Both the position numbers and the translations under genes were made by a program. DNA of 64,000 nt from Verrucomicrobiia bacterium (GTDB taxonomy: Bacteria; Verrucomicrobiota; Verrucomicrobiia; Chthoniobacterales; UBA6821), in NCBI GenBank assembly GCA_026398175.1, contig JAPLTJ010000121.1, forward strand, positions 3,357 to 67,356, written 5' to 3'. Within the stretch, counting starts at the first letter, position 1. Each line of letters starts with the position of its first letter. Below the pieces are notes generated by a model, which did not search any database, was not told the origin of the DNA, and was given only the letters and a program-made list of their open reading frames with translations. Below are positions 3,073-59,313 of this stretch, piece by piece.

Positions 3073-3082
3073 GGTTAAAAAA

Positions 3083-3106
3083 GGTTACAGGTTGCAGGCT
3101 ACAGGT
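3083..3106 (-). repeat. Heptamer arm, 10 nt upstream of the start of ORF 2560..3072
   Basis: GGTTACAGGTTGCAGGCTACAGGT is in the same family and orientation as 1491-1520. Confidence 0.65.
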
Positions 3107-8991: not shown

Positions 8992-10545
8992 ATGACTACC
9001 AACTATCAATGCAACCTTCTCCCCGCGAAGACGGGGATGCGAATAGGCTTCCTCGTAGGATGCTTAATCATCCTCGTTACCCTTTTCCGCTTTTGGTACG
9101 CCACGCAGCTTGAGTTGATCGGCGATGAGGCATATTATTGGTATTGCTCGCGGCATCTCGATTGGAGTTTTTTTGATAAGGGACCCGGTGCGGCCGTTAC
9201 CATTTTTTTAGGAACGCATCTTTTTGGAGATACTGTTTTTGGAGTTCGCTTTTTTGCCGTGCTGCTTTCGGCTGCCACTGGCATAGGACTCTTTGTTCTT
9301 GCTCGCATGCTCTATTCGTCGCGTGCGGCTTTTTGGACCTTGATGATAGTGCTCTTCATGCCGCTCTATGCGGTGGGGAGCATTTTGATGACGATTGATC
9401 CGCTGAGTATCTTTTTTTGGACGATGGCGGCTATCTCATTTTGGAAATCCACAAAAAGTGACAAGATTTGGTTTTGGATTCTCACGGGAGCTTTTGTTGG
9501 TCTTGGAATGTTAGCCAAATATACAAACTTGGTTGAGTTGCTCTGCTTTGCTCTTTTTTGCCTTTGGAGCCCAGCCCAACGTCGTCAATTCAGGAGGCCT
9601 CATTTCTACGTGATGTTGGCTACCGTCCTCTGCTTTGCCTTTCCTATGATTATTTGGAATTGTGAACATCACGGCATTGGCATTATCCATCTTCTTCACC
9701 GAGGCGATCTGGATCACGCCTGGAGTGTTAAACCCGTTGAGATCCTCACCTTTCTTGGCGCACAAGCCGGGGTCATTTCACCATTCTTTTTTCTTGGAGT
9801 GATGCTTTCTGTTTTTTGGCCTCAATATGATGATCTTCATGCAGAGGCGACACGTTATTTGCGTTCTCTCTTTATTCCTCTTTTTGTTTTTTATTCCTGT
9901 CTCAGTTTGAATAAAGCGGCGGAGCCAAATTGGCCTGCTCCTTGTTATGTTGCAGGAATGATCTTGCTGGCTGGTAATTGGCAGGCACTTGTGCGTCGTT
10001 GGCCTTGGGCAAAAAAATGGGTTGTGACTGCTTTTGTCATTGCTGCCCTTGAGACTGTCCTGTTGCACAATACTTTTTGGTTGCATCTTCCTTTGCCTCA
10101 ATCTTGGAATCAGAGCAAAAATCCCATCGTTCAAAAAATAAGTGAGGCTTATCGCAACCTGGGAGTTGTTGATCCTCTTGATCGAACCAGGGGAGGGGCT
10201 TCCATTGCGCAACATGCTTTGGAGCTTTCTCAAAAATATAAAACCTCATTTTTTATTTCCGACAATTATCAAACAGCAAGCCTCTTGAGTTTTTATCTTC
10301 CTGCTCATCCTGATACCTACGAGGCCGATTGGGGGCGGATCAAAGATCAATTTTCCATCTGGCCTGGATACCATCAGCAATATGCTCCAGGAAGCAATGC
10401 TATCCTTGTGTACGAATGGAGATATCCGCCGAGAGAAATGTGGTATGATTTTTCTCGGATGCCACTCCTCGACGAATACTATTCAACAACAGGCACGCGG
10501 CCGCTTAAAAAATATTACTATTCTCTTTGTGAGGGGTTGCGGTGA
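8992..10545 (+). CDS. GT39/ArnT-family (GT-C) glycosyltransferase
   Basis: Polytopic membrane protein with the N-terminal loop motif GDEAYYWYCSRHLDWSFFDKGPG, typical of ArnT/PMT_2. Confidence 0.85.
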   Translation: MTTNYQCNLLPAKTGMRIGFLVGCLIILVTLFRFWYATQLELIGDEAYYWYCSRHLDWSFFDKGPGAAVTIFLGTHLFGDTVFGVRFFAVLLSAATGIGLFVLARMLYSSRAAFWTLMIVLFMPLYAVGSILMTIDPLSIFFWTMAAISFWKSTKSDKIWFWILTGAFVGLGMLAKYTNLVELLCFALFCLWSPAQRRQFRRPHFYVMLATVLCFAFPMIIWNCEHHGIGIIHLLHRGDLDHAWSVKPVEILTFLGAQAGVISPFFFLGVMLSVFWPQYDDLHAEATRYLRSLFIPLFVFYSCLSLNKAAEPNWPAPCYVAGMILLAGNWQALVRRWPWAKKWVVTAFVIAALETVLLHNTFWLHLPLPQSWNQSKNPIVQKISEAYRNLGVVDPLDRTRGGASIAQHALELSQKYKTSFFISDNYQTASLLSFYLPAHPDTYEADWGRIKDQFSIWPGYHQQYAPGSNAILVYEWRYPPREMWYDFSRMPLLDEYYSTTGTRPLKKYYYSLCEGLR

Positions 10546-12799: not shown

Positions 12800-12868
12800 A
12801 AAAACGGATTTTTATCTTCTATGTTATAAACCGTGACGGCAAGCCATTCATGGGGTATGTTAGATTCT

Positions 12869-14440
12869 ATGGAAAAACGTACGTTCGAGGCGCTCGGCCT
12901 CTCCCCCGAGATGATGAAGGCTGTGGCTCAACTTGGCTTTGAGGAGGCCTCGCCTATTCAGACAGCAGCTATTCCGATTTTATTAACTGGTGCTGATGTT
13001 GTTGGGCAGTCTCAAACCGGTTCTGGAAAAACGGCAGCCTATGCCATTCCTGCTATTGAAAAAGTTGACCCTACGAGTAAAGCTGTTCAAGTCTTAGTCC
13101 TCTGCCCAACGCGTGAGCTAGCAACGCAGGTTGCCGATGAAGTTTATAAACTGACAGCTTTTAAGCGCAACATTCATTGTGTTCCGATTTATGGCGGTGC
13201 TTCTTATGAACGTCAGCTTTTTGAATTAAAAAAAGGAGTTCAAATTGTCATTGGGACGCCAGGTCGCGTCATGGATCATTTGGAGCGTGGCACGTTGAAA
13301 CTGGATCAAGTTAAGGTTGTTGTTTTGGATGAAGCGGATCGCATGCTCGATATGGGCTTTCGTGATGATATTCAAATCATCCTTGAAAAGACACCTGAAG
13401 ACAGGCAGACAGTTTTCTTTTCAGCAACGCTTTCCAAGCCGATCCGCGATTTGATTAATCGTTTTTCACATGAGCCGCAGACGGTCAAGATCGAGCAGAA
13501 GGAGTTGACCGTTCCAACGGTGGAGCAATGGTTTTATGAAGTTCCTGGGCGCATGAAGACAGAAGCGTTTATTCGACTGATCGATTTTCATGGATACAAA
13601 CTTGGGATTATTTTTTGTAATACGCAACGCATGGTCGATGAACTGGCTGATGCACTCTTGGCGCAGGGATTCTCGACGGATCGCTTGCATGGCGGGATTC
13701 CGCAAGCTCAGCGGACTCGGGTGATGAACAAGTTTAAAAATTCTGAATTTGAGTTTCTTGTGGCAACCGATGTCGCAGGACGAGGGATTGATGTTGAATC
13801 CTTAGAGCTCGTGGTCAATTATGATCTCCCATACGATCCAGAAGATTATGTGCATCGCATTGGACGCACGGGACGAGCTGGAAAAAAAGGAGTGGCGATG
13901 ACGTTTGTCACGGGGCGTGATATTTATAAACTTCAATTTATTGAACGCTACACCAAAACAAAAATTCGTCGTGGAATACTTCCGACTGTCGGAGAGGTTG
14001 AAGGAAAACGTGCGGAACAACTTTACGGAAAACTTCAGAAACAACTTCAACAAAACTCGTTCAAAAAGCATGAGATCATCATGGATCGTTTGTTGGAAGA
14101 GGGATATTCTTCGACTGATATTGGATCAGCACTTTTTTCGATGCTGTTAGGAAATGCTCCTGAAGCAGCTAAAAAAGAGGCTGTAGAGCCTTCTCGCGAG
14201 CGCGAGTCGCAAGATTTTTCTTTTGCGCAAGCTAAGGGAGGTCGAGGTGGGCAGCGTGATGATCGCCGTGAGGCTCCTCGTGGAGGCCAAGGTTTTAAAA
14301 GCGGTCCTCCTCGTGGCGATCGAGGAGAACAACGAAGTGGCCCGCCAAGGCGCAATAGTGACTACCGAGCTGACGCACCTAGGAGTGGTTCCTTTAAAAA
14401 AGGGCCTGTGCGCAAATATTCGAAGGCTCCTAGGGACTGA
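12869..14440 (+). CDS. DEAD-box ATP-dependent RNA helicase with an RG-rich C-terminal tail
   Basis: Has the Q motif, GSGKT, DEAD, SAT and HRIGRTGRAG. The start could instead be GTG 12833 or ATG 12857. Confidence 0.9.
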   Translation: MEKRTFEALGLSPEMMKAVAQLGFEEASPIQTAAIPILLTGADVVGQSQTGSGKTAAYAIPAIEKVDPTSKAVQVLVLCPTRELATQVADEVYKLTAFKRNIHCVPIYGGASYERQLFELKKGVQIVIGTPGRVMDHLERGTLKLDQVKVVVLDEADRMLDMGFRDDIQIILEKTPEDRQTVFFSATLSKPIRDLINRFSHEPQTVKIEQKELTVPTVEQWFYEVPGRMKTEAFIRLIDFHGYKLGIIFCNTQRMVDELADALLAQGFSTDRLHGGIPQAQRTRVMNKFKNSEFEFLVATDVAGRGIDVESLELVVNYDLPYDPEDYVHRIGRTGRAGKKGVAMTFVTGRDIYKLQFIERYTKTKIRRGILPTVGEVEGKRAEQLYGKLQKQLQQNSFKKHEIIMDRLLEEGYSSTDIGSALFSMLLGNAPEAAKKEAVEPSRERESQDFSFAQAKGGRGGQRDDRREAPRGGQGFKSGPPRGDRGEQRSGPPRRNSDYRADAPRSGSFKKGPVRKYSKAPRD

Positions 14441-14443
14441 GTG

Positions 14444-14510
14444 ATTCGCAGGGATGGAAGTAGATAAGAAAAAGAATTTACAGGGATGGAAGCGATGGAA
14501 GGGATACTGG
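14444..14510 (+). repeat. Purine-rich arm(s) after the helicase stop (two sub-copies)
   Basis: ATTCGCAGGGATGGAAGTAGATAAG and ATTTACAGGGATGGAAGCGATGGAAGGGATACTGG. Confidence 0.8.
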
Positions 14511-14605
14511 AAAATACTTTTTCTAAGTTCTGCCTTTTTAAATTAGCTTTCAATAAATTCTGGTGACACTTTTCAAAAAGGAGTTTCAAATTTATTAAAT
14601 TTATT

Positions 14606-14637
14606 CAATCCCTTCCATCGCTTCTATCCCTGTGAAT
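14606..14637 (+). repeat. Complementary pyrimidine-rich arm covering the esterase GTG start
   Basis: CAATCCCTTCCATCGCTTCTATCCCTGTGAAT pairs with 14478-14507 (26 WC + 2 G.U of 30, hand count). Confidence 0.8.
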
Positions 14638-16377
14638 TTCTTCTCGCTTCTGTCTTCTGTTGTTGTTGCCAGCTTCTTGCTAGCGACAGCACACGCCGAC
14701 GTGACAATGCCAGCGATCTTTGGAGATCATATGGTGATGCAACAAGGAACGTCATTGCCGATTTGGGGTGAGGCTGATCCAGGCGAGCGAGTAACAGTGA
14801 AATTTGTGGGACAACAAGCAATGACCACGGCAAGAAAAGATCGGCAATGGCGCGTGAACTTGCAAACGGTTTATCTGAGGAGTTCTCCAGATGTCTTGAT
14901 GGTTGATGGAAAAAATCATCTCGAATTTTCGGATGTGATCATGGGAGATGTCTGGCTCTGCTCCGGGCAATCTAATATGGCGTTTCCTTTGCGAGAAGCC
15001 GATGGAGGAGAGACGGCGATTATTCATGCTGAAGATGGCCAGTTGCGTTTTTTTGTTGTTCCTGAAAAGCAAGCTTTTCAACCTCAACATCAAATGGAAG
15101 GAAGTTGGGAGCGCTGCTCGCCAGAGGCTGCGGCAGGATTTTCTGCGATTGGTTATTTTTTTGGACGCGATCTTCGAATGGCAACTGGCATGCCCGTTGG
15201 ATTAATTGGAAGTTATTGCGGAGGCAGCTCAGCGCAAGCGTGGATGAGTCTTCCTGCGCTTCAGCAGTCACCTTCTTTCAGTCATTATCTTGCAGAATAT
15301 TATCAGGGCGCCCGTGATTTTTCAAAAAATCAGGACACTTATTCTCAGCGAAAAATGGATTATGAGCAAGAGCTAGCTGCCTGGGAAGAGCAGGTAGGAA
15401 CGCCCTATCAAGAAGAACTGGCAACTTGGAAACTCAAATGCAAAGAGGCTTGTTCAAAACTTTGGGCGCAGCCATTAAAACCAGATCCACTTTCGCAAAA
15501 ACCAACACCTCCTTTGCCGCCAGACGGAGGTGTTACGGCGCCAACACTGCTTTTCAATGCTATGATTGCCCCGTTGATTCCGTATGCCATGACCGGTGTG
15601 ATTTGGTATCAGGGAGAGTCTAATGAGAATAGGAAATCTCAGCATTCTTGGATGGCTCAATTTGAGAATAATAGTGTTGACAGCACCGTTTTTTCAGTTT
15701 TTGAATACCGACGTCTTTTTCAACGGTTGATTCGTTCATGGCGTGTAGCTTGGGGAGAGGGACCATTCCCTTTTTATTTTGTGAGTTTAGCTGGATTCCG
15801 TAAGTCAACGTTCGATCCTGTCGAAATGTTGATGGATGATGAAGGGGGCTTGAATCCTTGTTGGGCTTGGTTGCGCGAGGGTCAAGCCGTCGCGCTCTCA
15901 CTGCCTGAGACAGGGATGGCAGTGGCTACTGATATTGGCAATCCTAACGATATTCATCCCAAGGATAAACTTGATGTGGGACGGCGGTTGGCATTGCTCG
16001 CGCGGAAAAATCTTTACGGTCAACAAGTCGTAGCGAGTGGTCCGACTTATTGTTCGATGAAACAAGAAGAGAAAAAAATTCGTCTGACATTTAACGATGT
16101 TGGCAAAGGCCTGACTGTTGCAGCTCCGCCGTGGCGGTATGATGGGACGATCGTGATGCCGCTTTCCCTTCAAGGTTTTGCCATTGCAGGAGACGATCGT
16201 CATTGGTACGACGCTGTTGCTCTCATTGAAGGAAGTGATATCATCGTCTCCAGCGAGTTTGTTTTAAAACCAACAGCGGTTCGTTACAATTGGAAAGATA
16301 ATCCCACGGGCAACCTCTACAACAAAGAGGGATTGCCTGCGGCGTCATTTAGAACGGATTTGGATCAACCGAAGTAA
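14632..16377 (+). CDS. Sialate O-acetylesterase (SASA/SGNH-like) family protein, secreted
   Basis: The GTG start gives the signal peptide MNFFSLLSSVVVASFLLATAHA. GDVWLCSGQSNM is the esterase nucleophile motif. Confidence 0.8.
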   Translation: MNFFSLLSSVVVASFLLATAHADVTMPAIFGDHMVMQQGTSLPIWGEADPGERVTVKFVGQQAMTTARKDRQWRVNLQTVYLRSSPDVLMVDGKNHLEFSDVIMGDVWLCSGQSNMAFPLREADGGETAIIHAEDGQLRFFVVPEKQAFQPQHQMEGSWERCSPEAAAGFSAIGYFFGRDLRMATGMPVGLIGSYCGGSSAQAWMSLPALQQSPSFSHYLAEYYQGARDFSKNQDTYSQRKMDYEQELAAWEEQVGTPYQEELATWKLKCKEACSKLWAQPLKPDPLSQKPTPPLPPDGGVTAPTLLFNAMIAPLIPYAMTGVIWYQGESNENRKSQHSWMAQFENNSVDSTVFSVFEYRRLFQRLIRSWRVAWGEGPFPFYFVSLAGFRKSTFDPVEMLMDDEGGLNPCWAWLREGQAVALSLPETGMAVATDIGNPNDIHPKDKLDVGRRLALLARKNLYGQQVVASGPTYCSMKQEEKKIRLTFNDVGKGLTVAAPPWRYDGTIVMPLSLQGFAIAGDDRHWYDAVALIEGSDIIVSSEFVLKPTAVRYNWKDNPTGNLYNKEGLPAASFRTDLDQPK

Positions 16378-17764: not shown

Positions 17765-17785
17765 CTTACAGCCTACAGCCTATAG
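17765..17785 (+). repeat. Heptamer arm, 14 nt upstream of ffh
   Basis: CTTACAGCCTACAGCCTATAG. Confidence 0.55.
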
Positions 17786-24316: not shown

Positions 24317-24606
24317 TGTCCAAAATAAAATTACTCGCATGCTATGCGTATGACTTTTCTGAAAAAGCAGGAGTATCTTATTTCAGTGCTACTCAGCAAT
24401 CCTAGTAACCGTCATTCCAGCGGACGCTGGAATCCAGGCGAAGGTCAATTCAGATTTGATCGCTAGCGTCAAAAAAATTAAAATAATTAGTAAGGATGAG
24501 AAAATACTTTTACGAAAACAAAAATAAAGATCGCCTCCTCGCGGAGGCGAGGACCCAGAAGAGACCACCAACCAGCGTCCGCTGGAATGACGGTGGTGTA
24601 GCTGGA
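24317..24606 (-). mobile_element. MITE-like repeat, copy 3 (diverged; one terminus missing), between rfbF and rfbG
   Basis: TGTCCAAAATAAAA at 24317. Palindromes at 24411-24437 and 24573-24592, plus an extra hairpin CGCCTCC-TCGC-GGAGGCG at 24531-24548. The centre matches copy 4. Confidence 0.65.
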
Positions 24607-24836
24607 ATCTGGCTAGTGGCGATTTTTCTTTTTTTGATGAATATACCTTTCACGAATGATTTTTAGGAATTTCTGCTTGTTTCTTTTTCCTCTGGCTGTG
24701 TTACCCTCGCTGACGTTATGTACGCATAGCGCTGCGCTCGGTCGCCTTGCCAGAGAAAAAAGCTCCAGCGCATAATTGTCCTAAAAATCATCCGCAAAAG
24801 GTATACGTTAGTACGAATTTAGCGGTTTGTTATTTT

Positions 24837-27683: not shown

Positions 27684-27967
27684 TTGTCTCTCCCGGAGCA
27701 AGGCGTGATCTTAGAGGGATTCAACGTTATATTTCTATTGATTCGCCTCAAGCAGCTCTACGCTTTGGTCAACGACTTCTGAAAAAACAAGAAATGCTTG
27801 GAAGTCATCCTGAAATAGGACGTGTCGTTCCTGAAATAGGTAATCGAGCGGTACGAGAGCTTATTGTTGGAAATTATCGATTGATTTATGAAGTCAATTT
27901 TTTGAACAAGGAGATTGAAATATTTCGCTACTGGCACGCTGCTCGAGGGATTCCAAAGATCCGTTGA
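27668..27967 (+). CDS. RelE/ParE-family toxin (cassette C)
   Basis: Paralog of the A and B toxins (SPGARRDLRGI, HPEIGR, YRLIYE, RYWHAARG). Confidence 0.85.
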   Translation: MVFRIIVSPGARRDLRGIQRYISIDSPQAALRFGQRLLKKQEMLGSHPEIGRVVPEIGNRAVRELIVGNYRLIYEVNFLNKEIEIFRYWHAARGIPKIR

Positions 27968-27974
27968 TATACTC

Positions 27975-29177
27975 ATGACGAATAAAAAAAACATTGTTCC
28001 GCCACTTCTGCAGGAAGATCTCGAGCATGTCTTAACACACACGAAGCCCCTCTGGGAGCAGGTGCGGGGAGGTCGGATTTTTGTGACGGGGGCAACAGGA
28101 TTTTTTGGAACTTGGTTGCTAGAAACTTTTTTGTATGCCAATGACCAATTGAAATTAGGAGCAGAGCTTGTGGGGCTCAGTCGTAATTCTGCTGCATTTG
28201 CTGCAAAGGCGCCTCACATCGTCAATCATCCAGCGATTACAATGCATGCTGGTGATGTGCGTGATTTTATTTTTCCTAACCCGACTTTCACTATTCGAGA
28301 TGGCGATCTTTCTCAATATACTCGGCCTCAAAACGATTTTTTAAATCATTCATGTATGAAACATACACCGCATGATTTTAAAAATGATTTTGAGACCAAG
28401 TCCTCACAAAATCTCATCCATTCGAATAGCGAAAGTCGGGTAGGAAAATTTTCTCATGTGATTCATGCAGGCACAACTTCCAGTGCGCCCGTGCCGCCGC
28501 TAGAAATGCTGGAGACGATTACCCGAGGAACACGGCGAGCGCTTGATTTTGCGGTCGCTTGTGAAGCAAAGCGATTTCTTTTTGTCAGCTCTGGCGCTGT
28601 TTATGGTGACGCACGCTCAGAGCAACATCATTTTTCCGAAGAAGACCACGCGGCTCCCGATCCCATGAATTCTGCCTCTGCGTATGGCGAGGGAAAGCGA
28701 TTCGCTGAGCTGCTGTGCCGACTTTATCATGACAACCATCAGCTGGAGACGACGATTGCGCGCTGTTTTGCCTTTGTTGGACCGCATTTGCCACTCAATG
28801 CTCATTTTGCGATTGGGAATTTTTTACGCGATGCTTTAGAAAAAAAACCGATCGTGATCAAGAGCGATGGTCAGTCGCAGCGTTCCTACCTCTACGCTGC
28901 GGATCTGATGATTTGGCTCTGGACAATTCTTTTTAAAGGCCAGCCTTGCCGTCCATACAATGTCGGTTCGGAGCACGCGCTCACCATCAAGCAGCTAGCG
29001 GAAAAAGTTCACGACACACTACAACTCAAGGAAAAGGTGCAAATCGGAACCGGTGGTAAAACTTCATGCTACGTCCCTGACACAACTAGGGCACACAAAG
29101 AATTAGGATTGCAAGAGTGGGTGACAATCGAGGAGAGTGTTCGGAAATGTTTTGATTGGGCTGCTGAAATTACTTAG
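27975..29177 (+). CDS. NAD-dependent epimerase/dehydratase (extended SDR), candidate 4-ketoreductase
   Basis: VTGATGFFGTWL Rossmann motif and YGEGK (YxxxK). A low-complexity insertion of about 60 aa sits between HAGDVRDF and HVIHAG. The start was moved to ATG 27975, downstream of the toxin stop. Confidence 0.8.
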   Translation: MTNKKNIVPPLLQEDLEHVLTHTKPLWEQVRGGRIFVTGATGFFGTWLLETFLYANDQLKLGAELVGLSRNSAAFAAKAPHIVNHPAITMHAGDVRDFIFPNPTFTIRDGDLSQYTRPQNDFLNHSCMKHTPHDFKNDFETKSSQNLIHSNSESRVGKFSHVIHAGTTSSAPVPPLEMLETITRGTRRALDFAVACEAKRFLFVSSGAVYGDARSEQHHFSEEDHAAPDPMNSASAYGEGKRFAELLCRLYHDNHQLETTIARCFAFVGPHLPLNAHFAIGNFLRDALEKKPIVIKSDGQSQRSYLYAADLMIWLWTILFKGQPCRPYNVGSEHALTIKQLAEKVHDTLQLKEKVQIGTGGKTSCYVPDTTRAHKELGLQEWVTIEESVRKCFDWAAEIT

Positions 29178-38563: not shown

Positions 38564-39310
38564 ATGAAGACACTCTCTATTCGCAATCTCCATGCTTCTA
38601 TCGGCGAGAAGCCAATTCTTCGAGGCCTCAATTTAGACATTCCTCAAGGGGAAGTGCATGCCATTATGGGAAAAAATGGTTCTGGAAAAAGCACTCTCGC
38701 AAAAGTCATGGCAGGACATCCCGACTATACGGTGACGGAAGGGGATGTTTTACTCAATGGGCAAAGCATTCTTGGCATGGAGCCTGATGTACGGGCGCGT
38801 TTGGGGCTCTTCCTTGCTTTTCAATACCCCATGGAAATTCCAGGAGTGACCATCGCCAACTTTATTCGAGCTGCAGTGCAGGCTCGTCTGCCTGAGGGAG
38901 AAGAGTTAGAAGCCACGGAGTATTACGCAAAGCTTTACGCTAAGATGGATGAGTTGAGTATTCCTCGTGCATTTACTTCGCGTTCGGTGAATGAAGGTTT
39001 TTCGGGTGGAGAAAAAAAGAGATGTGAGATTTTGCAAATGGCGATGCTTCAGCCGAGCTATGCCGTGCTTGATGAAACAGACAGCGGCCTTGATATTGAT
39101 GCGCTCAAAGTTGTTTCTTCAGGAGTCAATGCTCTCCGAGGTCCAGAGGTTGGAATGCTTGTCATCACGCACTATCAACGGCTTCTCGATTACATCGTTC
39201 CTGACAAAGTCCATGTCATGGGCGAAGGAGAAATTGTCTTGAGTGGGGATAAAGATCTGGCGCTCAAACTCGAGGCTGAAGGCTACGACTGGGTGACGGC
39301 AAAAAAATAA
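38564..39310 (+). CDS. sufC: Fe-S cluster assembly ATPase
   Basis: [17 protein letters not shown] and the [11 protein letters not shown] motif. Confidence 0.95.
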
Positions 39311-39410
39311 TTCACAGGGATAGAAGCGATAAAAGAAGTTTTATTTTTAGCGCTTTTTAGCGAATTTAGCGGTTATGCTTTTATCTCTCATCCCTTTCAT
39401 CGCTGTAAAT
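39311..39410 (+). repeat. Arm pair in the sufC-sufB spacer, same sequence family as 14444-14637
   Basis: TTCACAGGGATAGAAGCGATAAAAGAAG (starts 1 nt after the sufC stop) and CTCTCATCCCTTTCATCGCTGTAAAT (ends 16 nt before the sufB ATG). The complementarity is weaker (core AGCGATAAAAG / CTTTCATCGCT). Confidence 0.6.
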
Positions 39411-40888: not shown

Positions 40889-41133
40889 TGTCCAAAATAC
40901 ACCAATCAATAGAAGAAAAGCAGCAACTAGCCACACCGCCATCATTCGAGCGGACGCTGGAATCCAGCGACTGACGATCTTTATTTTTGTTTTCGTAAAA
41001 GTGTTGTTTAATCCTCCTCAATCTTTTTAAATTTTTTTGACGCTACTACTCAAATGTGAATTGACCTTCACCTGGATTCCAGCGTCCGCTGGAATGACGG
41101 TTAATCGAGTTGTCAAATAGCATTGAAATAAGA
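40889..41133 (+). mobile_element. MITE-like repeat, copy 4 (3' terminus truncated), between sufB and sufD
   Basis: TGTCCAAAATAC at 40889. Palindromes at 40943-40966 and 41074-41100. The core GATCTTTATTTTTGTTTTCGTAAAAGTG is shared with all long copies. Confidence 0.65.
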
Positions 41134-41185: not shown

Positions 41186-42454
41186 ATGAATATTATTTCC
41201 GAATATCAGATTTCTTTAGATTTGCCGGCTTGGCTTGTCCAGCAGCAAGCTCACGCCTGGGAGCAATTTTTAAAACTCCCACAACCAACACGTCATGATG
41301 AACAGTGGCGTTTTTCCAATTTAAAAATTCTCGATCTTGCTCGGTGGCATCTGGCATCGGCACCGGCAAATGTGGATGCTTTGTTAGCTCGTTCTCAAGG
41401 AAGTGCTGATCTTGCTGCTAAGCTCGTCTTTGCTAATGAGCGTTTGATTTCACGAGAGATTCACGATCTTCCTGAAGGCGTTCTGCTGCTGCCATTGGAA
41501 GAGGCAGCTCGTGATCATGAGGCCTTGTTCCAGCGCTATTTCATGAAGCATCCTGCTCTTCTCGGTTCAGCCAAGATCGCAGCGCTTCATCGTGCGCAAC
41601 TTCAAACGGGAGTCTTCCTCTACGTGCCAGCTGGAGTGAAGATTGAAAAACCGATTGAACTTTGGCATTGGAGCGAGGGAGATCATGCCGCCATTTTTCC
41701 ACACACACTCGTCGTCTGTGAGGAAAGGAGTTCTGCGTCCGTCATTGATCATTTTTTCTCGATGAACAACGAGGCCTCCTTTGTTGCAGGAGTGAATGAT
41801 TTGATTGTAAAAGCAGATGCTCATCTCAAATACATTGCGGTTCAAAATTGGAGTCGTGAAACAACGGCGTTTCATTTGAACACGACCGATGTTGGCAAGA
41901 ATGCTGTTGCTACCTCGCTACAGCTCAACTTAGGAGGCCGGTACATTCGTACGGAGAGCAACAGCCGACTCTTAGAAGAAGGGGCACGAAGTGTGATGCT
42001 TTCAATCAATCCAATAGATGCCGATGGTGAGATAGATCAACGGACCTTTCAAGATCACCTTGCTCCGAGTGCTACGAGTGATTTACTTTATCACAATGCT
42101 CTCGATGATCGTTCAAGGAGTGTTTTTTCCGGGCTCATCAAAGTTGGAACAGCTGCTCATGAGACCGACGCTTATCAAAAAGTGCGCAATCTGATGCTGA
42201 GTGATGAAGCCGAGGCCAACTCCATGCCAGGACTCGAGATCTTAGCCGATCGGGTTCGCTGCTCCCACGGTGCGACCTCGGGAGAACTCAATCAAGATGA
42301 ACTTTTTTATATGATGGCGCGCGGCATCCCTCCACAAAAGGCTGCGAAGCTGATTGTCCGTGGATTTTTTGAAACAGTTTTAAGACGTCTGGAAGAACCT
42401 TCGTTAGAAAAATATTTTGGACAGTTGCTGAATCAACGATTGGGGTTGGATTAA
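41186..42454 (+). CDS. sufD: Fe-S cluster assembly protein
   Basis: SufB/D beta-helix family (VQNWS, RCSHGAT.G.L..DELFYM). Confidence 0.9.
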   Translation: MNIISEYQISLDLPAWLVQQQAHAWEQFLKLPQPTRHDEQWRFSNLKILDLARWHLASAPANVDALLARSQGSADLAAKLVFANERLISREIHDLPEGVLLLPLEEAARDHEALFQRYFMKHPALLGSAKIAALHRAQLQTGVFLYVPAGVKIEKPIELWHWSEGDHAAIFPHTLVVCEERSSASVIDHFFSMNNEASFVAGVNDLIVKADAHLKYIAVQNWSRETTAFHLNTTDVGKNAVATSLQLNLGGRYIRTESNSRLLEEGARSVMLSINPIDADGEIDQRTFQDHLAPSATSDLLYHNALDDRSRSVFSGLIKVGTAAHETDAYQKVRNLMLSDEAEANSMPGLEILADRVRCSHGATSGELNQDELFYMMARGIPPQKAAKLIVRGFFETVLRRLEEPSLEKYFGQLLNQRLGLD

Positions 42455-43509
42455 CTTCCAAATAAATAAGCCACTCCCGGACGCTGATAGCAAAAGCCGC
42501 TGAGAGCCGCTGTCGTTGAAATCTTTTTTCCAAGGCCCAGAAATTTAAACGAGCGGCCCATGGTCTCTGGGTGGAGCAGCGTCTGCAGAAGACGAAACTC
42601 TTTTTGCTCGGCTGTTGTGAGCGATCTTCCTTCAAACGTTCGTAGCCATGTTTCAGCAGCACCGATGAGAAAGTGATGCTGGTCACTGTAGCCGAGGATT
42701 TCAAAATTGCGTTGAAGCGCTTTCTCGGCGAGGTCGGTAAAATCGACATGGGCTGTGATGTCCCGTTTTCCAACTTCTTCGAGAGGATTGTCGTGGCGAT
42801 GATGATTTTCGTAGCAGGCAATGCTTCCTTCTGCGCGGTAAGAGGCAAAGCGATCGATTCCCGCATATCCATAATCCGCAATGAGGATTATGCCGCGCTT
42901 CATGCGTACTTCAATCTCTTGCAGCCAGGGAACGATGCCAAGTCTCACTTCCCATAAAAATTCAGGAGCAAGATTGTGAGGTAGTTTTTTTGCGACGCTC
43001 TGGAGTTCCTCTTGTTCGATCGGAAGCGTGACCCAAGCCTTTGCTGCTATGCGCTGTTCCAACCATTCCTCTCCATTCCAGCGGAGCAAGTCAATGGGGA
43101 AGGCATCCAGTAGTTCATTTGAAAAATGGAGGCCTTCAAATTCTGGGAGCTCTATGATTTTTTTTACCCAGGAAACATTTTGGTGTTGTTTCAATGTCTC
43201 TTGTTGTTTTTTTTGGTGAATAGAAAACGGTTCAACGATGTAGTAGTGGATTGATTTGAAAAAATCTGATGAGGCCTCCGCTGCCTCCAAGATATCGAGA
43301 GCCAGTCTTCCATCGTTGGCTCCTTGTTCTACAATCGTGAAGGGCTCTGGTTGTCCCATCTTTTCCCAGAGCTCTTCAAAAAAGAGCGCTAAAATTTTCC
43401 CGTAAATTTTCCCCACACTCACGTTAGTAAAAAAATCACCGGCTTTGCCAATGTGGACGCGACCAGAGGCGTAGTAGCCGTGCTCAGGATCGTAGAGAGC
43501 CTGCTCCAT
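42451..43509 (-). CDS. MidA/NDUFAF7-family (DUF185) SAM-dependent methyltransferase
   Basis: YYASGRVHIGKAGDFFTNVSVG and VEQGANDGRLA. The start was set at MEQALYDPEHGYY because the upstream track extension translates repeat DNA. Confidence 0.8.
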   Translation of the reverse strand: MEQALYDPEHGYYASGRVHIGKAGDFFTNVSVGKIYGKILALFFEELWEKMGQPEPFTIVEQGANDGRLALDILEAAEASSDFFKSIHYYIVEPFSIHQKKQQETLKQHQNVSWVKKIIELPEFEGLHFSNELLDAFPIDLLRWNGEEWLEQRIAAKAWVTLPIEQEELQSVAKKLPHNLAPEFLWEVRLGIVPWLQEIEVRMKRGIILIADYGYAGIDRFASYRAEGSIACYENHHRHDNPLEEVGKRDITAHVDFTDLAEKALQRNFEILGYSDQHHFLIGAAETWLRTFEGRSLTTAEQKEFRLLQTLLHPETMGRSFKFLGLGKKISTTAALSGFCYQRPGVAYLFGS

Positions 43510-43524
43510 GAATTCGGCGAAAGA

Positions 43525-43740
43525 CAGGCAGGAGGCTACAGGCTGGAGGCTAGAAGAGAGGCTGAAGGCGGAGGGCTGAAGGCTGAAGGAAAAGCAATTT
43601 TGAGTTGCTAGTTTATGATTCATGCTAGTTTTCTTTGTGGGCATTCTTTTTTGCCATATAAGAATTGTTTTCCATTAAAATGCGAGAATATCAAACTAAG
43701 TTTTCTTCAGCCTTCAGTCTTCAGCCCTTAGCCTTCAGCC
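43525..43740 (-). repeat. Arm pair (CTTCAGC family) between hypothetical gene 43740..45455 and the MidA-like gene
   Basis: On the minus-strand RNA, GGCTGAAGGCTAAGGGCTGAAGACTGAAGG pairs with CCTTCAGCCTTCAGCCCTCCGCCTTCAGCC as 10 + 10 + 7 bp, separated by a 2x2 and a 1x1 mismatch. The spacer is about 115 nt. Confidence 0.8.
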
Positions 43741-45455
43741 TATTTCAGAATCTCCCTCACATAGACATTGACCGTCCCATCATTTCCCTTTTTAACATCG
43801 GTAATCATAAAAGGGTGATCTTGATTGCGTGCAACTGAAGTCCCTTCAGCAGGAGGTACTGCTCCAGCAGGATAAGCAACGATGATGCGCATTTTTGTGA
43901 TGCCATCGGGTGTCAGCGAGGAATTATTTGATTGGTAGCGGAGGACAGAGCGGTCTTGACCAGAGGCTGTCACCGCAAAATCTCCTTGAAGATAAAGCCG
44001 CTCACCAGCAAGTCCCTGTTCTGCAAGATCGCGAAGTTGTGGTGCAGCGACGAAGCGTCCGCGAGGCATTTTTCCAGGGTCGTATGTTGGCCACAATGGA
44101 TTATTGGAATCAGGAAGAGGGCCTCTTTCGGTAATTGCCATTGGGGTTCCGGGAGCAGGAGCAAACGATGTAGGCGGCGGCAGACTGGATTGATTGGCAG
44201 CAGCAAGAGCTGGTGCCGCTTCTGCTTCGAGAGGAGTTGTTGAAGAAAGGGGCGTTGCTGTTGGAAGAGGCGCGACCTGTTTCGCAGGAGCCACTGGAAG
44301 CGCTACTGGAGTTGCAGGCAGCACTGCTGGCGTGTTCAGAGGAAGTGCACGAGCCACTTTTGGGGCAGTGACAGGCACTGCTTTTGCTGCGCGCGAAATA
44401 TTTTTTAAAAATGATTTTTTGGCAGAGGCCGCTAGTTTGTTAGAAATAATTTGTAAGATAAAGGCAGAGTTGGGCTGCACCGTTTGTTGTGTCCCTTCCT
44501 GCCTAGAAAACCCCATCTTCGTACGATAATCTGCATGCTGTGTCTCTGCCGAAATAAGATCTTTTGGAGGAAGCAAAGGAAGTCCTCCTTCGATATTGAG
44601 GTGAGCCGGTGGTGCTAGTGAAAAGAGAACAGGGCCGCTGCTTGTAGGTCCATAACTTCCATAAAGAAGCGAGATGGTGGTCAATTTTAAATGTCCATCG
44701 GGAAGTTTTTCAACATGCAGGATGGCGGAAAGGTCTAAAGGCTTTTCAAATTTAATCTCTTGGCCTGGAGTGAGCGCCTGCTCTAGAGGATTGAGATCAT
44801 TAGACATTTTTTCAAATTCTACTGCTGGTGCGACAGGCTGTGCTGCTCCACTATTAGTGCCAGTGAGTATCTCGTGTATACTGCGGGTCTGCGCATCAGA
44901 GATTCCTTTCACTTCACTAGCGCGATCGATTTTTGAAATAAGTTTACTGTTTACTGCCGGAAAAACCTGCTCCAAGAGGATTTCTGGCTGGTCTACTGAT
45001 TGAAGCAAGGCGCACATTCCTGGATAAAAAAAATTTTTTTTAGTGAGCGGAAAAGCAGCCAAGACGCGATAAGTCTCGGTGACATAGGGTGTCAAATCGT
45101 GCGTCTGATGATAATTGCGAAGAAAGTTAGAAAGGAGTCGATCGTTTAAGCGTCTCGTTTCACGTTGGCCGAGCGGACCAAAGCGCTCGAGAAGTTGTTT
45201 TGGTTTTAGGAATTCACCGCGCGGTGCTTCTGTCAACTCGAAGCGTTGAGGCTCATCTAATTTATGAAGCCTCATGAGGAGATGATAATTCACTGATTTT
45301 TCAGGATGCCCAAAAACATAGAAGCTTCCTATCCAGCAAAAAAGGGCAAACCCCATCAGCAAGAAGATAAAAATAGTCCACGCAAATATCCCGTCAACAC
45401 CATGGGCGCTGGCTCGTCGTGGTGTGGCGCTAGGAAAACGATTGTAATTTTTCAT
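43740..45455 (-). CDS. Hypothetical membrane-anchored protein with a Pro/Ala-rich linker
   Basis: One N-terminal TM (IFAWTIFIFLLMGFALFCWIGSFYVF), a PA-rich tract of about 90 aa and a C-terminal domain of about 120 aa. Start at MKNYNRF. Confidence 0.55.
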   Translation of the reverse strand: MKNYNRFPSATPRRASAHGVDGIFAWTIFIFLLMGFALFCWIGSFYVFGHPEKSVNYHLLMRLHKLDEPQRFELTEAPRGEFLKPKQLLERFGPLGQRETRRLNDRLLSNFLRNYHQTHDLTPYVTETYRVLAAFPLTKKNFFYPGMCALLQSVDQPEILLEQVFPAVNSKLISKIDRASEVKGISDAQTRSIHEILTGTNSGAAQPVAPAVEFEKMSNDLNPLEQALTPGQEIKFEKPLDLSAILHVEKLPDGHLKLTTISLLYGSYGPTSSGPVLFSLAPPAHLNIEGGLPLLPPKDLISAETQHADYRTKMGFSRQEGTQQTVQPNSAFILQIISNKLAASAKKSFLKNISRAAKAVPVTAPKVARALPLNTPAVLPATPVALPVAPAKQVAPLPTATPLSSTTPLEAEAAPALAAANQSSLPPPTSFAPAPGTPMAITERGPLPDSNNPLWPTYDPGKMPRGRFVAAPQLRDLAEQGLAGERLYLQGDFAVTASGQDRSVLRYQSNNSSLTPDGITKMRIIVAYPAGAVPPAEGTSVARNQDHPFMITDVKKGNDGTVNVYVREILK

Positions 45456-45816: not shown

Positions 45817-45978
45817 GTAACGAGTAAAGAGTAAAGGGTAAAGAGTGCAGAGACCTTCAAGTCATCTCAGTTGTAGTTCATAAAAAAAATTATCCTATCA
45901 GATCAAAATTAAATATTAAAAATAAAATAAACCTACCCAAGAACTCTTTACCCGTTACCTTTTAGCCTTTACTCTGCC
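45817..45978. repeat. Arm pair (GTAAAGA / CTCTTTAC family) in the divergent iscA-mutL region
   Basis: GTAACGAGTAAAGAGTAAAGGGTAAAGAGTGCAG and CTCTTTACCCGTTACCTTTTAGCCTTTACTCTGCC flank a very AT-rich spacer of about 93 nt. Confidence 0.75.
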
Positions 45979-47783: not shown

Positions 47784-48084
47784 TGTCCAAAATAAAATTT
47801 ACCAACAGAAGAAAGGGCCTCTCTAATCACATTCTGCCTACACTTACACATTGCCGTCATTCCAGCGGACGCTGGAATCCAGCGTCCGTCGACACAGAAT
47901 TGATGATTTTCTAAAATAAAGTCTCACTTCTTTTTTAAAGAAAGCATTTTCTCCTTTTGCAACATCATACCAATTTTACGAAAACAAAAATAAAGATCCA
48001 GAGCCGCCTGGATTCCAGCGTCCGCTGGAATGACGTTTGGGTGTAGTGTTTTTTTATTTTAAAAAAATTAATTTATTTTGGACA
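47784..48084 (-). mobile_element. MITE-like repeat, copy 5 (full length), 9 nt after the mutL stop
   Basis: Both termini are intact. Palindromes at 47856-47886 and 48010-48035. It is the reverse complement of the copy 1/2 layout. Confidence 0.75.
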
Positions 48085-48108: not shown

Positions 48109-48140
48109 CCTTCAGTCTTCAGTCCTTAGCCTGTAACCTG
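48109..48140 (+). repeat. Arm (CTTCAG/CTGTAAC words), 5 nt upstream of the NUDIX-like gene
   Basis: CCTTCAGTCTTCAGTCCTTAGCCTGTAACCTG. The short partner ACTGAAG lies at 48087-48093. Confidence 0.65.
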
Positions 48141-58660: not shown

Positions 58661-58788
58661 GATTTTCATTGATTCACGGGACTGGATGTTCGTTTTGAAT
58701 GTTCTAACCGGGCGGGTGAGTTCCTGAATCATTAACTAACAAACAGCCTGCCCGAGGAGACTCTTTGCGAAAGCAAAGAGATTTACAT
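58661..58788 (+). promoter_or_regulatory. Structured 128-nt rpmI-rplT spacer (possible L20-responsive leader)
   Basis: CGGGCGGG...CCTGCCCG forms a long-range stem (7 WC + 1 G.U). CTCTTTGC-GAAA-GCAAAGAG is a perfect 8-bp GNRA hairpin at 58765-58784, 4 nt before the rplT ATG. Confidence 0.35.
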
Positions 58789-59157
58789 ATGCCTAGAGCC
58801 ACTAACTCTCCCGCGAGTCGCGCACGTCGCAAGCGGGTCATTGATGAAGCCGCTGGTTATCGCGGTCGCCGTTCCAAACTTTTCCGCTATGCAAAAGATG
58901 CGCGGATGAAAGCCAAGTATTGGGCTTATCGTGATCGTAAGACACGGAAGCGCAATGTTCGCTCACTCTGGATTGCTCGTCTTAATGCAGCAGTTCGTGC
59001 AGAATCAATCACCTACAGCCGTTTTATGGAAGGCATGAAAGCAGCAGCGATCACTCTTGATCGTAAAGTGCTTTCTGATCTTGCCATCAACGATGCGAAG
59101 GCTTTTTCTGTCATCGTAGCTCAAGCAAAAGCAGCGCTAGCTAAGAAAAGCAAGTAA
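58789..59157 (+). CDS. rplT: 50S ribosomal protein L20
   Basis: MPRATNSPASRARRKRV..AKGYRGRRS-like N-terminus and the expected length. Confidence 0.93.
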   Translation: MPRATNSPASRARRKRVIDEAAGYRGRRSKLFRYAKDARMKAKYWAYRDRKTRKRNVRSLWIARLNAAVRAESITYSRFMEGMKAAAITLDRKVLSDLAINDAKAFSVIVAQAKAALAKKSK

Positions 59158-59313
59158 AGAGTGAAGGGTGAAGGGTAAAGAGTGGCTGGCGCAAATAATG
59201 AAATTCCATTTTTCAAAAGACAATATTCTAGAAAAACACGAATTCCTAATTGCTCATTTGATGTTCGATCTTAAAATTCAGAACTCTTTACTCTTTACTC
59301 TTCACGCTTTACC
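59154..59313 (+). repeat. Arm pair (GTAAAGA/GTGAAGG vs CTCTTTA/CTCTTCA) between rplT and pheS
   Basis: GTAAAGAGTGAAGGGTGAAGGGTAAAGAG contains the rplT TAA. It pairs with CTCTTTACTCTTTACTCTTCACGCTTTAC as 25 WC + 3 G.U + 1 mismatch of 29 (hand count). The spacer is 98 nt. Confidence 0.85.

Follow-up and report, generated by a model that had tools for sequence, protein, structure and literature searches.

A predicted stem over an esterase start codon is probably formed by the terminal repeats of a dispersed MITE-like element

In the stretch of 64,000 nucleotides analyzed here (the window), a DEAD-box helicase gene is followed on the + strand by a sialate O-acetylesterase gene, and repeat material begins 4 nt past the helicase TGA stop. 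The features of this junction are the following.

14438-14440, + strand: TGA stop of the DEAD-box helicase gene (12833-14440), whose orthologues carry Pfam helicase domains.
14444-14474, + strand: degenerate extra purine-rich arm copy ATTCGCAGGGATGGAAGTAGATAAGAAAAAG, detected by the repeat search and in the fold.
14476-14505, + strand: left (5') arm, ATTTACAG followed by GGGATGGAA, GCGATGGAA and GGGAT with a 9-nt period, belonging to the dispersed TTYACAGSGATRRAAGSGAT arm family.
14506-14607, + strand: AT-rich 102-nt interior, homologous to the interiors of copies at loci L121 (E = 2.5e-14) and L126/L128 (E = 3.7e-12).
14608-14637, + strand: right (3') arm ATCCCTTCCATCGCTTCTATCCCTGTGAAT, the reverse complement of the left arm, whose outer end GTGAAT encodes Met-Asn of the esterase.
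14632-14634, + strand: GTG start of the sialate O-acetylesterase gene (14632-16377), within the right arm, from annotation and orthologue alignment.
14638-14675, + strand: pyrimidine-rich signal-peptide codons TTCTTCTCGCTTCTGTCTTCTG..., which lengthen the predicted helix outwards on the + strand only.

The original prediction placed a 30-bp stem in this junction, with 26 Watson-Crick pairs, two G.U pairs and two terminal mismatches, and a recount from the sequence agrees when 14478-14507 (TTACAGGGATGGAAGCGATGGAAGGGATAC, 30 nt by direct reading) is set against 14635-14606. The G.U pairs are 14479.14634 and 14488.14625 and the mismatches lie at 14506 and 14507. The coordinates of the stem stand; the arm string given with them is 31 nt long, starts at 14477 and is one base off. 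Positions 14476-14477 also pair with 14636-14637, so that the full complementary arms are 14476-14505 and 14608-14637, and the repeat search widens them to 38 nt (14468-14505 and 14608-14645, 87% complementary, 102 nt apart). In the 64-kb window the only match of the 26-nt arm core is its own inverted partner, and none of 100 shuffles gives a match. The claim that the 3' arm holds the esterase start also proved correct: the public annotation gives an identical 581-aa protein (P0001) starting at GTG 14632, and the esterase orthologues begin with MNFF, MNLF or MNSF at an aligned ATG or GTG.

Folding of 14400-14680 with RNAfold gave -101.3 kcal/mol for the + strand (z = -6.9) and -79.3 kcal/mol for the - strand (z = -5.2), with 0 out of 200 shuffles as stable in either case, which puts the stem far beyond shuffles on both strands. 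In the Boltzmann ensemble the start codon of a transcript reading through from the helicase gene has a predicted probability of 0.001 of being unpaired, in line with the earlier claim that the stem buries the esterase start; this would apply to any transcript that carries both arms. When the transcript starts inside the spacer, the initiation region is 62% open. A further claim was that a partial copy of the 5' arm upstream of the stem could compete for pairing. The copy is real (14444-14460, 17 nt, 88% against the 5' arm and against the 3' arm), but its structure with the 3' arm (-31.3 kcal/mol) is 24 kcal/mol weaker than the main duplex (-55.4 kcal/mol), and in the minimum-energy fold it pairs instead with signal-peptide codons, the segment 14444-14474 being paired with esterase codons 3-15 through many G.U pairs. 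The energies thus do not favour switching between alternative structures. When the region and related elements were scanned against Rfam, nothing reached a gathering score; the only matches were sub-threshold ones to plant microRNA precursor models, which are generic long hairpins. Within 14200-14900 no sigma-70 promoter or intrinsic terminator was found except two weak sites inside the coding region.

Such a fold raises the possibility that an inserted repeat has been exapted as a translational control hairpin: helicase and esterase would be co-transcribed, the stem would close a GUG that has no Shine-Dalgarno sequence, and esterase synthesis would be conditional on its opening, with temperature, the DEAD-box helicase of the preceding gene and RNase III cleavage as possible triggers. 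Speaking for this reading are the very stable predicted stem, the start that is paired in read-through RNA and mostly open without the 5' arm, and the arms themselves, which are nearly perfect (25 out of 26 positions complementary in the core, at the upper end of the range found in the family). A Shine-Dalgarno-like motif was found upstream of none of the 43 starts inspected in the window, where leaders are A/T-rich or pyrimidine-rich, and in a genome of this kind the accessibility of the leader may matter more. Set against it are the coordinates, according to which a ribosome at the helicase stop would touch the outer helix only and not the core stem.

The orthologous junctions bear directly on this question. 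Gene order is kept in relatives (sulfate transporter, glycosyltransferase, GH18, flavoprotein, DEAD-box helicase, SASA esterase, SRP54), and the neighbourhood of the DEAD-box helicase is an ancestral gene order unlinked to the element. The space between helicase stop and esterase start varies among these relatives as follows.

Window and L006/L007 (esterase 97%): junction of 191 nt with the same architecture, a state shared with the window by L006/L007 only.
L001/L008/L009 (esterase about 85%): junction of 35 nt with three CGCAAAGAR repeats.
L004/L005 (esterase 79%): junction of 44 nt with a short hairpin, sequence CCTTCCATCCCTGTGAATTT.
L010 (esterase 83%): a different inner inverted repeat (CGCGAAA / TTTAGCG), followed by CTTCATCGCTTCTATCCCTGTGAATTC.
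L002/L003 (esterase 78%): junction filled by a whole PDDEXK_2 gene.

The PDDEXK_2 (Rpn/transposase-like) gene lies at 9119-9988 of L002 and 2540-3409 of L003, and a remnant of it is present in the annotated esterase N-terminus of another relative (P0008). The 5' arm and the spacer are missing from the L001, L004, L010 and L002 junctions. The 23 nt that end with the GTG are the same in the window and in L010, whose esterases are 83% identical. Arms or arm-like sequences at orthologous sites show much stronger conservation than neutral sequence, a point that weighs against reading the repeat as a MITE-like element. The junction states indicate that a sequence resembling the 3' arm and abutting the start is old and that the 5' arm and spacer belong to one shallow lineage. 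The extra copy at 14444-14474 probably represents the former 5' arm of a short inverted repeat of ancestral age, which L004 still has.

When folded, the L001, L004, L010 and L002 leaders are no more stable than shuffles (z of -0.5 to -1.3), which indicates that there is no conserved structure burying the esterase start and which also disposes of the idea that every orthologue buries its start in a different hairpin. The spacing of 35-44 nt in relatives does make co-transcription of helicase and esterase plausible, as an exapted hairpin would need. Between two insertion-bearing lineages the esterase has a dN/dS of 0.20, that is, it is under purifying selection, and the gene is thus still in use despite the hairpin.

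The original prediction took the G.U pairs as a sign of a strand-specific structure acting at the RNA level, and this part did not hold. All three transition mismatches of the window and L006/L007 copies are G.U on the + strand, as expected for an exapted hairpin, but the family as a whole has no such bias: when G/A differences between the two arms were oriented by the downstream gene in 55 family members, 46 gave a sense-strand G.U and 53 an A.C (p = 0.55). The two G.U pairs at 14476-14637 therefore carry no strand information. Likeness between the arms is 24.7 out of 36 within an element versus 24.0 out of 36 between elements (55-57 elements), variable arm positions do not covary, and the conserved part is the periodic motif on each arm. 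The window and L006/L007 arms differ at two positions, one of which gives a G.U pair and the other an uncompensated C.C. The rate of change in the junction is not distinguishable from that of four-fold sites, with 4 differences out of 191 positions between the window and L006 versus 26 out of 539 four-fold sites (p = 0.14, not significant). Together with orthologues that do not form the structure and arms that are dispersed in both orientations, these results lead us to regard the exapted hairpin as quite improbable. The comparative evidence speaks against a dedicated strand-specific riboregulator and favours terminal repeats that are conserved for a DNA- or protein-level reason.

An arm consists of roughly three GGGAT-type repeats of 9 nt and ends in TTYACAG. 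A BLAST search of the window with the element revealed a second, degenerate arm pair:

39311-39409, no strand assigned: the left arm abuts or overlaps the TAA of gene 38564-39310 and the right arm ends 17 nt before ATG 39427; the interior consists of TTTAGCG repeats, as in L010.

We also scanned one genome per species (596 Gb) with the arm pattern, for which about 35 matches were estimated to occur by chance, and the matches listed comprise more than 108 stretches, which run past the pattern into a third GGGAT repeat. At least 5-7 arm loci are present in each of three related Chthoniobacterales metagenome-assembled genomes (MAGs), one of which is the L001 genome, whose helicase-esterase junction is without the element. 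Multi-copy arms were also found in other Verrucomicrobiota, in Acidobacteriota, in Desulfuromonadales (Geobacter, Geomonas and others) and in two unclassified MAGs, and in Acidobacteriota and Desulfuromonadales the motif is present as inverted pairs. The arms are almost always arranged as a + arm with a - arm 40-390 nt downstream, and 57 such pairs were recovered. In the unclassified MAG BS750m-G18 the arm forms part of a longer conserved repeat (CTCTTACAGTGATATTTCCCCTTATTAAAATTTACAGGGATGAAAGGGAT...; loci L050, L053, L055, L067, L080, L092-L094, L101, L102, L107, L111, L114 and L118), and the frequent position of this repeat at contig ends suggests a very high copy number.

Whole-element copies were found in two further contexts. 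L121, from the same sample as L010, has at positions 1-146 a copy whose arms and spacer are homologous to those of 14476-14637 (81% identity) and which follows a different gene, and L126/L128 carry the element between two chromate-transporter genes (79% identity). Across these copies the element is 79-83% identical and the spacer 69-80%, with different flanks; in the wider family the interior varies greatly between copies. Metagenome scans with spacer patterns, through which the L126/L128 context came to light, gave 0 matches with the first pattern and 11 with the second, 2 of which are real. The L121 copy has the same orientation to its flanking genes as the window copy and the L128 copy has the opposite one, another finding that counts against an exapted hairpin. 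In L128 the upstream gene ends within the left arm (AAT TCA CAG GGA TAG) and the downstream gene, the second chromate transporter, starts at the right-arm GTG. A search for the arm motif as text in the Geobacter bemidjiensis supplements did not find it, and a literature search for the motif text or for Verrucomicrobia repeats gave nothing informative.

[quoted passage not shown] The element is short (162 bp, 14476-14637, where MITEs are below about 500 bp) with no ORF of 40 aa or more on the + strand; it has terminal inverted repeats of 26-30 nt; and it is carried by other loci and lacking from the L001, L004 and L002 junctions. No direct repeat was found at any offset in 55 pairs when we looked for a target-site duplication, a negative result that is weak given the uncertain element boundaries; one AATT match was discarded as a palindromic extension of the inverted repeat. 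Nor did about 1 Mb of loci contain an arm pair around a transposase-coding segment of gene size. An arm pair of L012 that is 1.6 kb apart was rejected as an autonomous element since it encloses ordinary genes, and so were the BS750m-G18 loci, which hold outer-membrane and sensor kinase genes. With no autonomous partner or transposase found near any copy, we call the element MITE-like and not a proven classical MITE. The arms do not resemble REP/BIME units, which are imperfect palindromes of 20-40 nt, being purine-rich tandem repeats that are not self-complementary. We consider it probable that the stem represents the two ends of such a dispersed MITE-like inverted-repeat element, and its RNA hairpin is then probably a by-product of the terminal repeats.

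The window contains a related class of elements, of a different family, whose arms are arrays of about four heptamers. The layout shared by these elements is a purine-rich tandem array of about 30 nt at or adjoining a stop, an AT-rich spacer of about 100 nt and a complementary pyrimidine array 0-20 nt before a start.

45817-45972, no strand assigned: GTAAAGA heptamer arms with a 96-nt spacer, between a divergent Fe-S assembly gene and mutL.
43559-43741, - strand: AGGCTGA heptamer arms, between a 590-aa gene and a methyltransferase gene.
59153-59312, + strand: AGTGAAG/GTAAAGA arms, from the TAA of ORF 58765-59157 to 20 nt before ATG 59332.

The first of these fills a 185-nt gap between divergent genes, with one arm adjoining each start codon. 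No single mRNA would carry both arms there, unless promoters lie inside the neighbouring coding regions, and arms on separate mRNAs argue for inverted symmetry as a DNA-level property. In relatives, the Fe-S/mutL gap holds the same arms around an unalignable spacer of equal length (L122), GGYTACA arms with a 31-nt spacer (L121) or GGCTGAG arms with a nested copy of another repeat (L119). The site of 43559-43741 has the same arms and an unalignable spacer in L119, a GGGAT-type element instead in L121, and is empty in L122, where the two genes overlap in GTGA. At orthologous sites with unalignable spacers the heptamer arms are about 95% identical, for MutL proteins that are 80-92% identical; this conservation hints at either a host-level function or concerted evolution. 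The N-terminus of the methyltransferase (Methyltransf_28; 42451-43644, - strand) is encoded by the spacer and pyrimidine arm of 43559-43741, and the gene appears to have gained about 32 N-terminal residues from this element.

Other repeats occur in the window. Another MITE-like family has four copies (2264-2466, 24408-24594, 40939-41100 and 47855-48035) with terminal repeats CGTCATTCCAGCGGACGCTGGAATCCAG of 21-29 nt, each with a small internal hairpin and with arms 104-161 nt apart. An inverted-repeat element TATACCTTTCACGAATGATTTTTAGGA ... TCCTAAAAATCATCCGCAAAAGGTATA lies at 24642-24805, and a homologue of it is nested at a non-orthologous site, the L119 Fe-S/mutL spacer (about 9747-9905). Finally, a 27-nt inverted repeat (28272-28448, 85% complementary, 123 nt between arms) lies inside ORF 27915-29177.

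The behaviour of the arms allows another reading, in which the elements are host cis-regulatory or recombination cassettes and not transposons. A conserved host protein would bind the tandem repeats of the arms, or the arms would serve as pyrimidine-rich leaders that bring in ribosomes where Shine-Dalgarno sequences are lacking; one or more promoters would lie in the AT-rich interior, and cassettes would be swapped between junctions by recombination via their shared arms. The near invariance of the arms over unalignable spacers at orthologous sites fits this reading, as do the sister element with an arm next to each of two divergent starts, the conservation of the arm motif across phyla and the failure to find either a target-site duplication or a transposase. 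It fits as well that about 10 of the 43 inspected genes have pyrimidine-rich arrays of 7 or 9 nt immediately before the start, in some cases lacking a partner arm. Solo pyrimidine heptamer arrays upstream of starts were observed at 1490-1520, 3082-3106, 17767-17782 and 48110-48124, with sense-strand units GTAACCT, TACAGCC and CTTCAGT, and one of these arrays precedes ffh.

The reading is also in keeping with the use of arms as start and stop codons. At least 11 unrelated genes appear to start at the arm-end GTG (CCCTGTGAA; L015 3174, L024 4035, L037, L040 6343, L052, L057 671, L074 2720, L097 5022, L108 and L128 1178), and the opposite arm overlaps the TAA or TAG stop of upstream genes. Of 79 arms with CTGTGAA at their end, 20 have a GTG that begins an ORF of 100 codons or more. 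Six of the 20 are orthologues of the esterase; the others are unrelated genes with N-termini that look complete, taken from their N-terminal sequences to encode a pyruvate kinase, BioB-like, PrmC-like, MurF-like and RibF-like proteins, an ABC ATPase, a PP2C phosphatase and an EamA transporter. The second chromate-transporter gene of L128 can be added to them. The remaining arms mostly stop 9-22 nt short of an ATG or adjoin a TAA. Closeness of arms to gene ends is expected in genomes with junctions of 35-45 nt; the repeated use of an arm GTG as a start is less trivial.

Against a host cassette stand several results. No sigma-70 consensus promoter, and no terminator, was found in the four spacers scanned (14506-14607 and those of three sister elements), a TTGCTC-16-TAAAAT found by hand at 59k having failed the 4/6 rule for a promoter. 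Element-free junctions work in close relatives (L001 and the empty site of L122), and the cross-phylum spread, the many copies per genome and the copies at contig ends would suit a mobile element just as well. Nor was a candidate binding protein identified. The motif ACAGGGAUG resembles the CsrA consensus. CsrA-binding RNAs present GGA in loops or single strands, and the motifs here would sit inside the stem; tblastn with an E. coli CsrA query detected no csrA in the 1.09 Mb of loci, which says little on whole genomes. We therefore regard host cassettes as unlikely and retain the MITE-like element as the preferred reading.

The closest known cases are Correia, ERIC and Chunjie, which are MITEs found in operons and forming long RNA hairpins, and the Rickettsia palindromic elements (RPEs). 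Like Correia (Neisseria), ERIC (enterobacterial) and Chunjie elements, the present one is non-coding, falls in the range of about 100-250 bp, is AT-rich inside, has terminal inverted repeats and many copies, lies between genes or inside operons and is predicted to fold as RNA into a very stable hairpin. Hairpins of Correia elements are substrates for RNase III and may include promoters. Unlike these three, the present element has arms of three 9-nt tandem repeats, a variable interior and an arm motif shared across phyla. Chunjie, a MITE of Geobacter uraniireducens, is 178-235 bp long, has reported folds of about -98 to -130 kcal/mol and sits in an operon without destroying it (PMC3184786, PMC10969869). 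It has 9-bp direct repeats, whereas we found no target-site duplication; the likeness to Chunjie is one of description.

RPEs insert in or next to genes without destroying them and become coding sequence (PMC10969869). Similarly, the right arm supplies Met-Asn of the esterase, and in 43559-43741 a whole arm is translated. RPEs, however, encode a conserved peptide in frame inside genes, whereas the elements described here occupy stop-to-start junctions and provide start or stop codons or short N-terminal extensions. Burial of a start codon in a long helix, here predicted on read-through RNA, is also known from RNA thermometers and RNase III-activated leaders; those structures are short-range, conserved in orthologues and marked by compensatory changes, whereas the stem described here is long-range (102-nt loop), lineage-specific, repeat-derived and without covariation. 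Integron attC sites such as the Vibrio cholerae repeats are likewise imperfect inverted repeats between ORFs, with a variable centre and complementarity that is kept though sequences differ. Unlike attC sites, by inspection, the present element is flanked by conserved syntenic housekeeping genes and not by cassettes, and neither an integrase nor an R/L core-site consensus was seen. Relative to these known cases, the new traits are the arms built of tandem repeats, the lack of a detectable target duplication, the cross-phylum motif, the conservation of arms over replaced spacers and the donation of start codons.

We thus propose that a dispersed non-coding element of about 160 bp, MITE-like or foldback-like, occupies the helicase-esterase junction of a freshwater, Chthoniobacterales-type Verrucomicrobium. 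The periodic arm motif would be a putative binding array for a transposase or recombinase and would not be selected for base pairing, and the element may have spread by transposition or by recombination between pre-existing arms. In transcripts reading through from the helicase gene, a duplex of about 30 bp (-55 kcal/mol) would block initiation at the GUG and would be a likely substrate of RNase III, a double-strand RNase. Esterase mRNA that can be translated would then begin within the AT-rich interior or arise by processing of the hairpin. A more speculative model, to which we give a low probability, treats the GGGAT-arm and heptamer-arm elements together as portable operon-junction cassettes shared across phyla, with arms bound by a conserved protein, starts independent of a Shine-Dalgarno sequence (the arm-end GTG of at least 11 housekeeping genes) and exchange of the interior by recombination between arms; the hairpin at the present junction would be a processing or occlusion signal that uncouples helicase and esterase.

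The present case is a caution that a spectacular long-range stem over a start codon can be merely the ends of a repeat element. The family deserves attention in its own right, as its members fit exactly between the stop and the start of conserved housekeeping genes, in a genome that lacks Shine-Dalgarno sequences, donate GTG starts and sometimes N-terminal residues or stops, and have arms that are conserved far beyond their interiors, with an arm motif common to Verrucomicrobiota, Acidobacteriota and Desulfuromonadales. Should a host protein bind the arms, or should the arms act as leaders, they would bear on how translation starts are defined without a Shine-Dalgarno sequence and on how operon junctions are remodelled.
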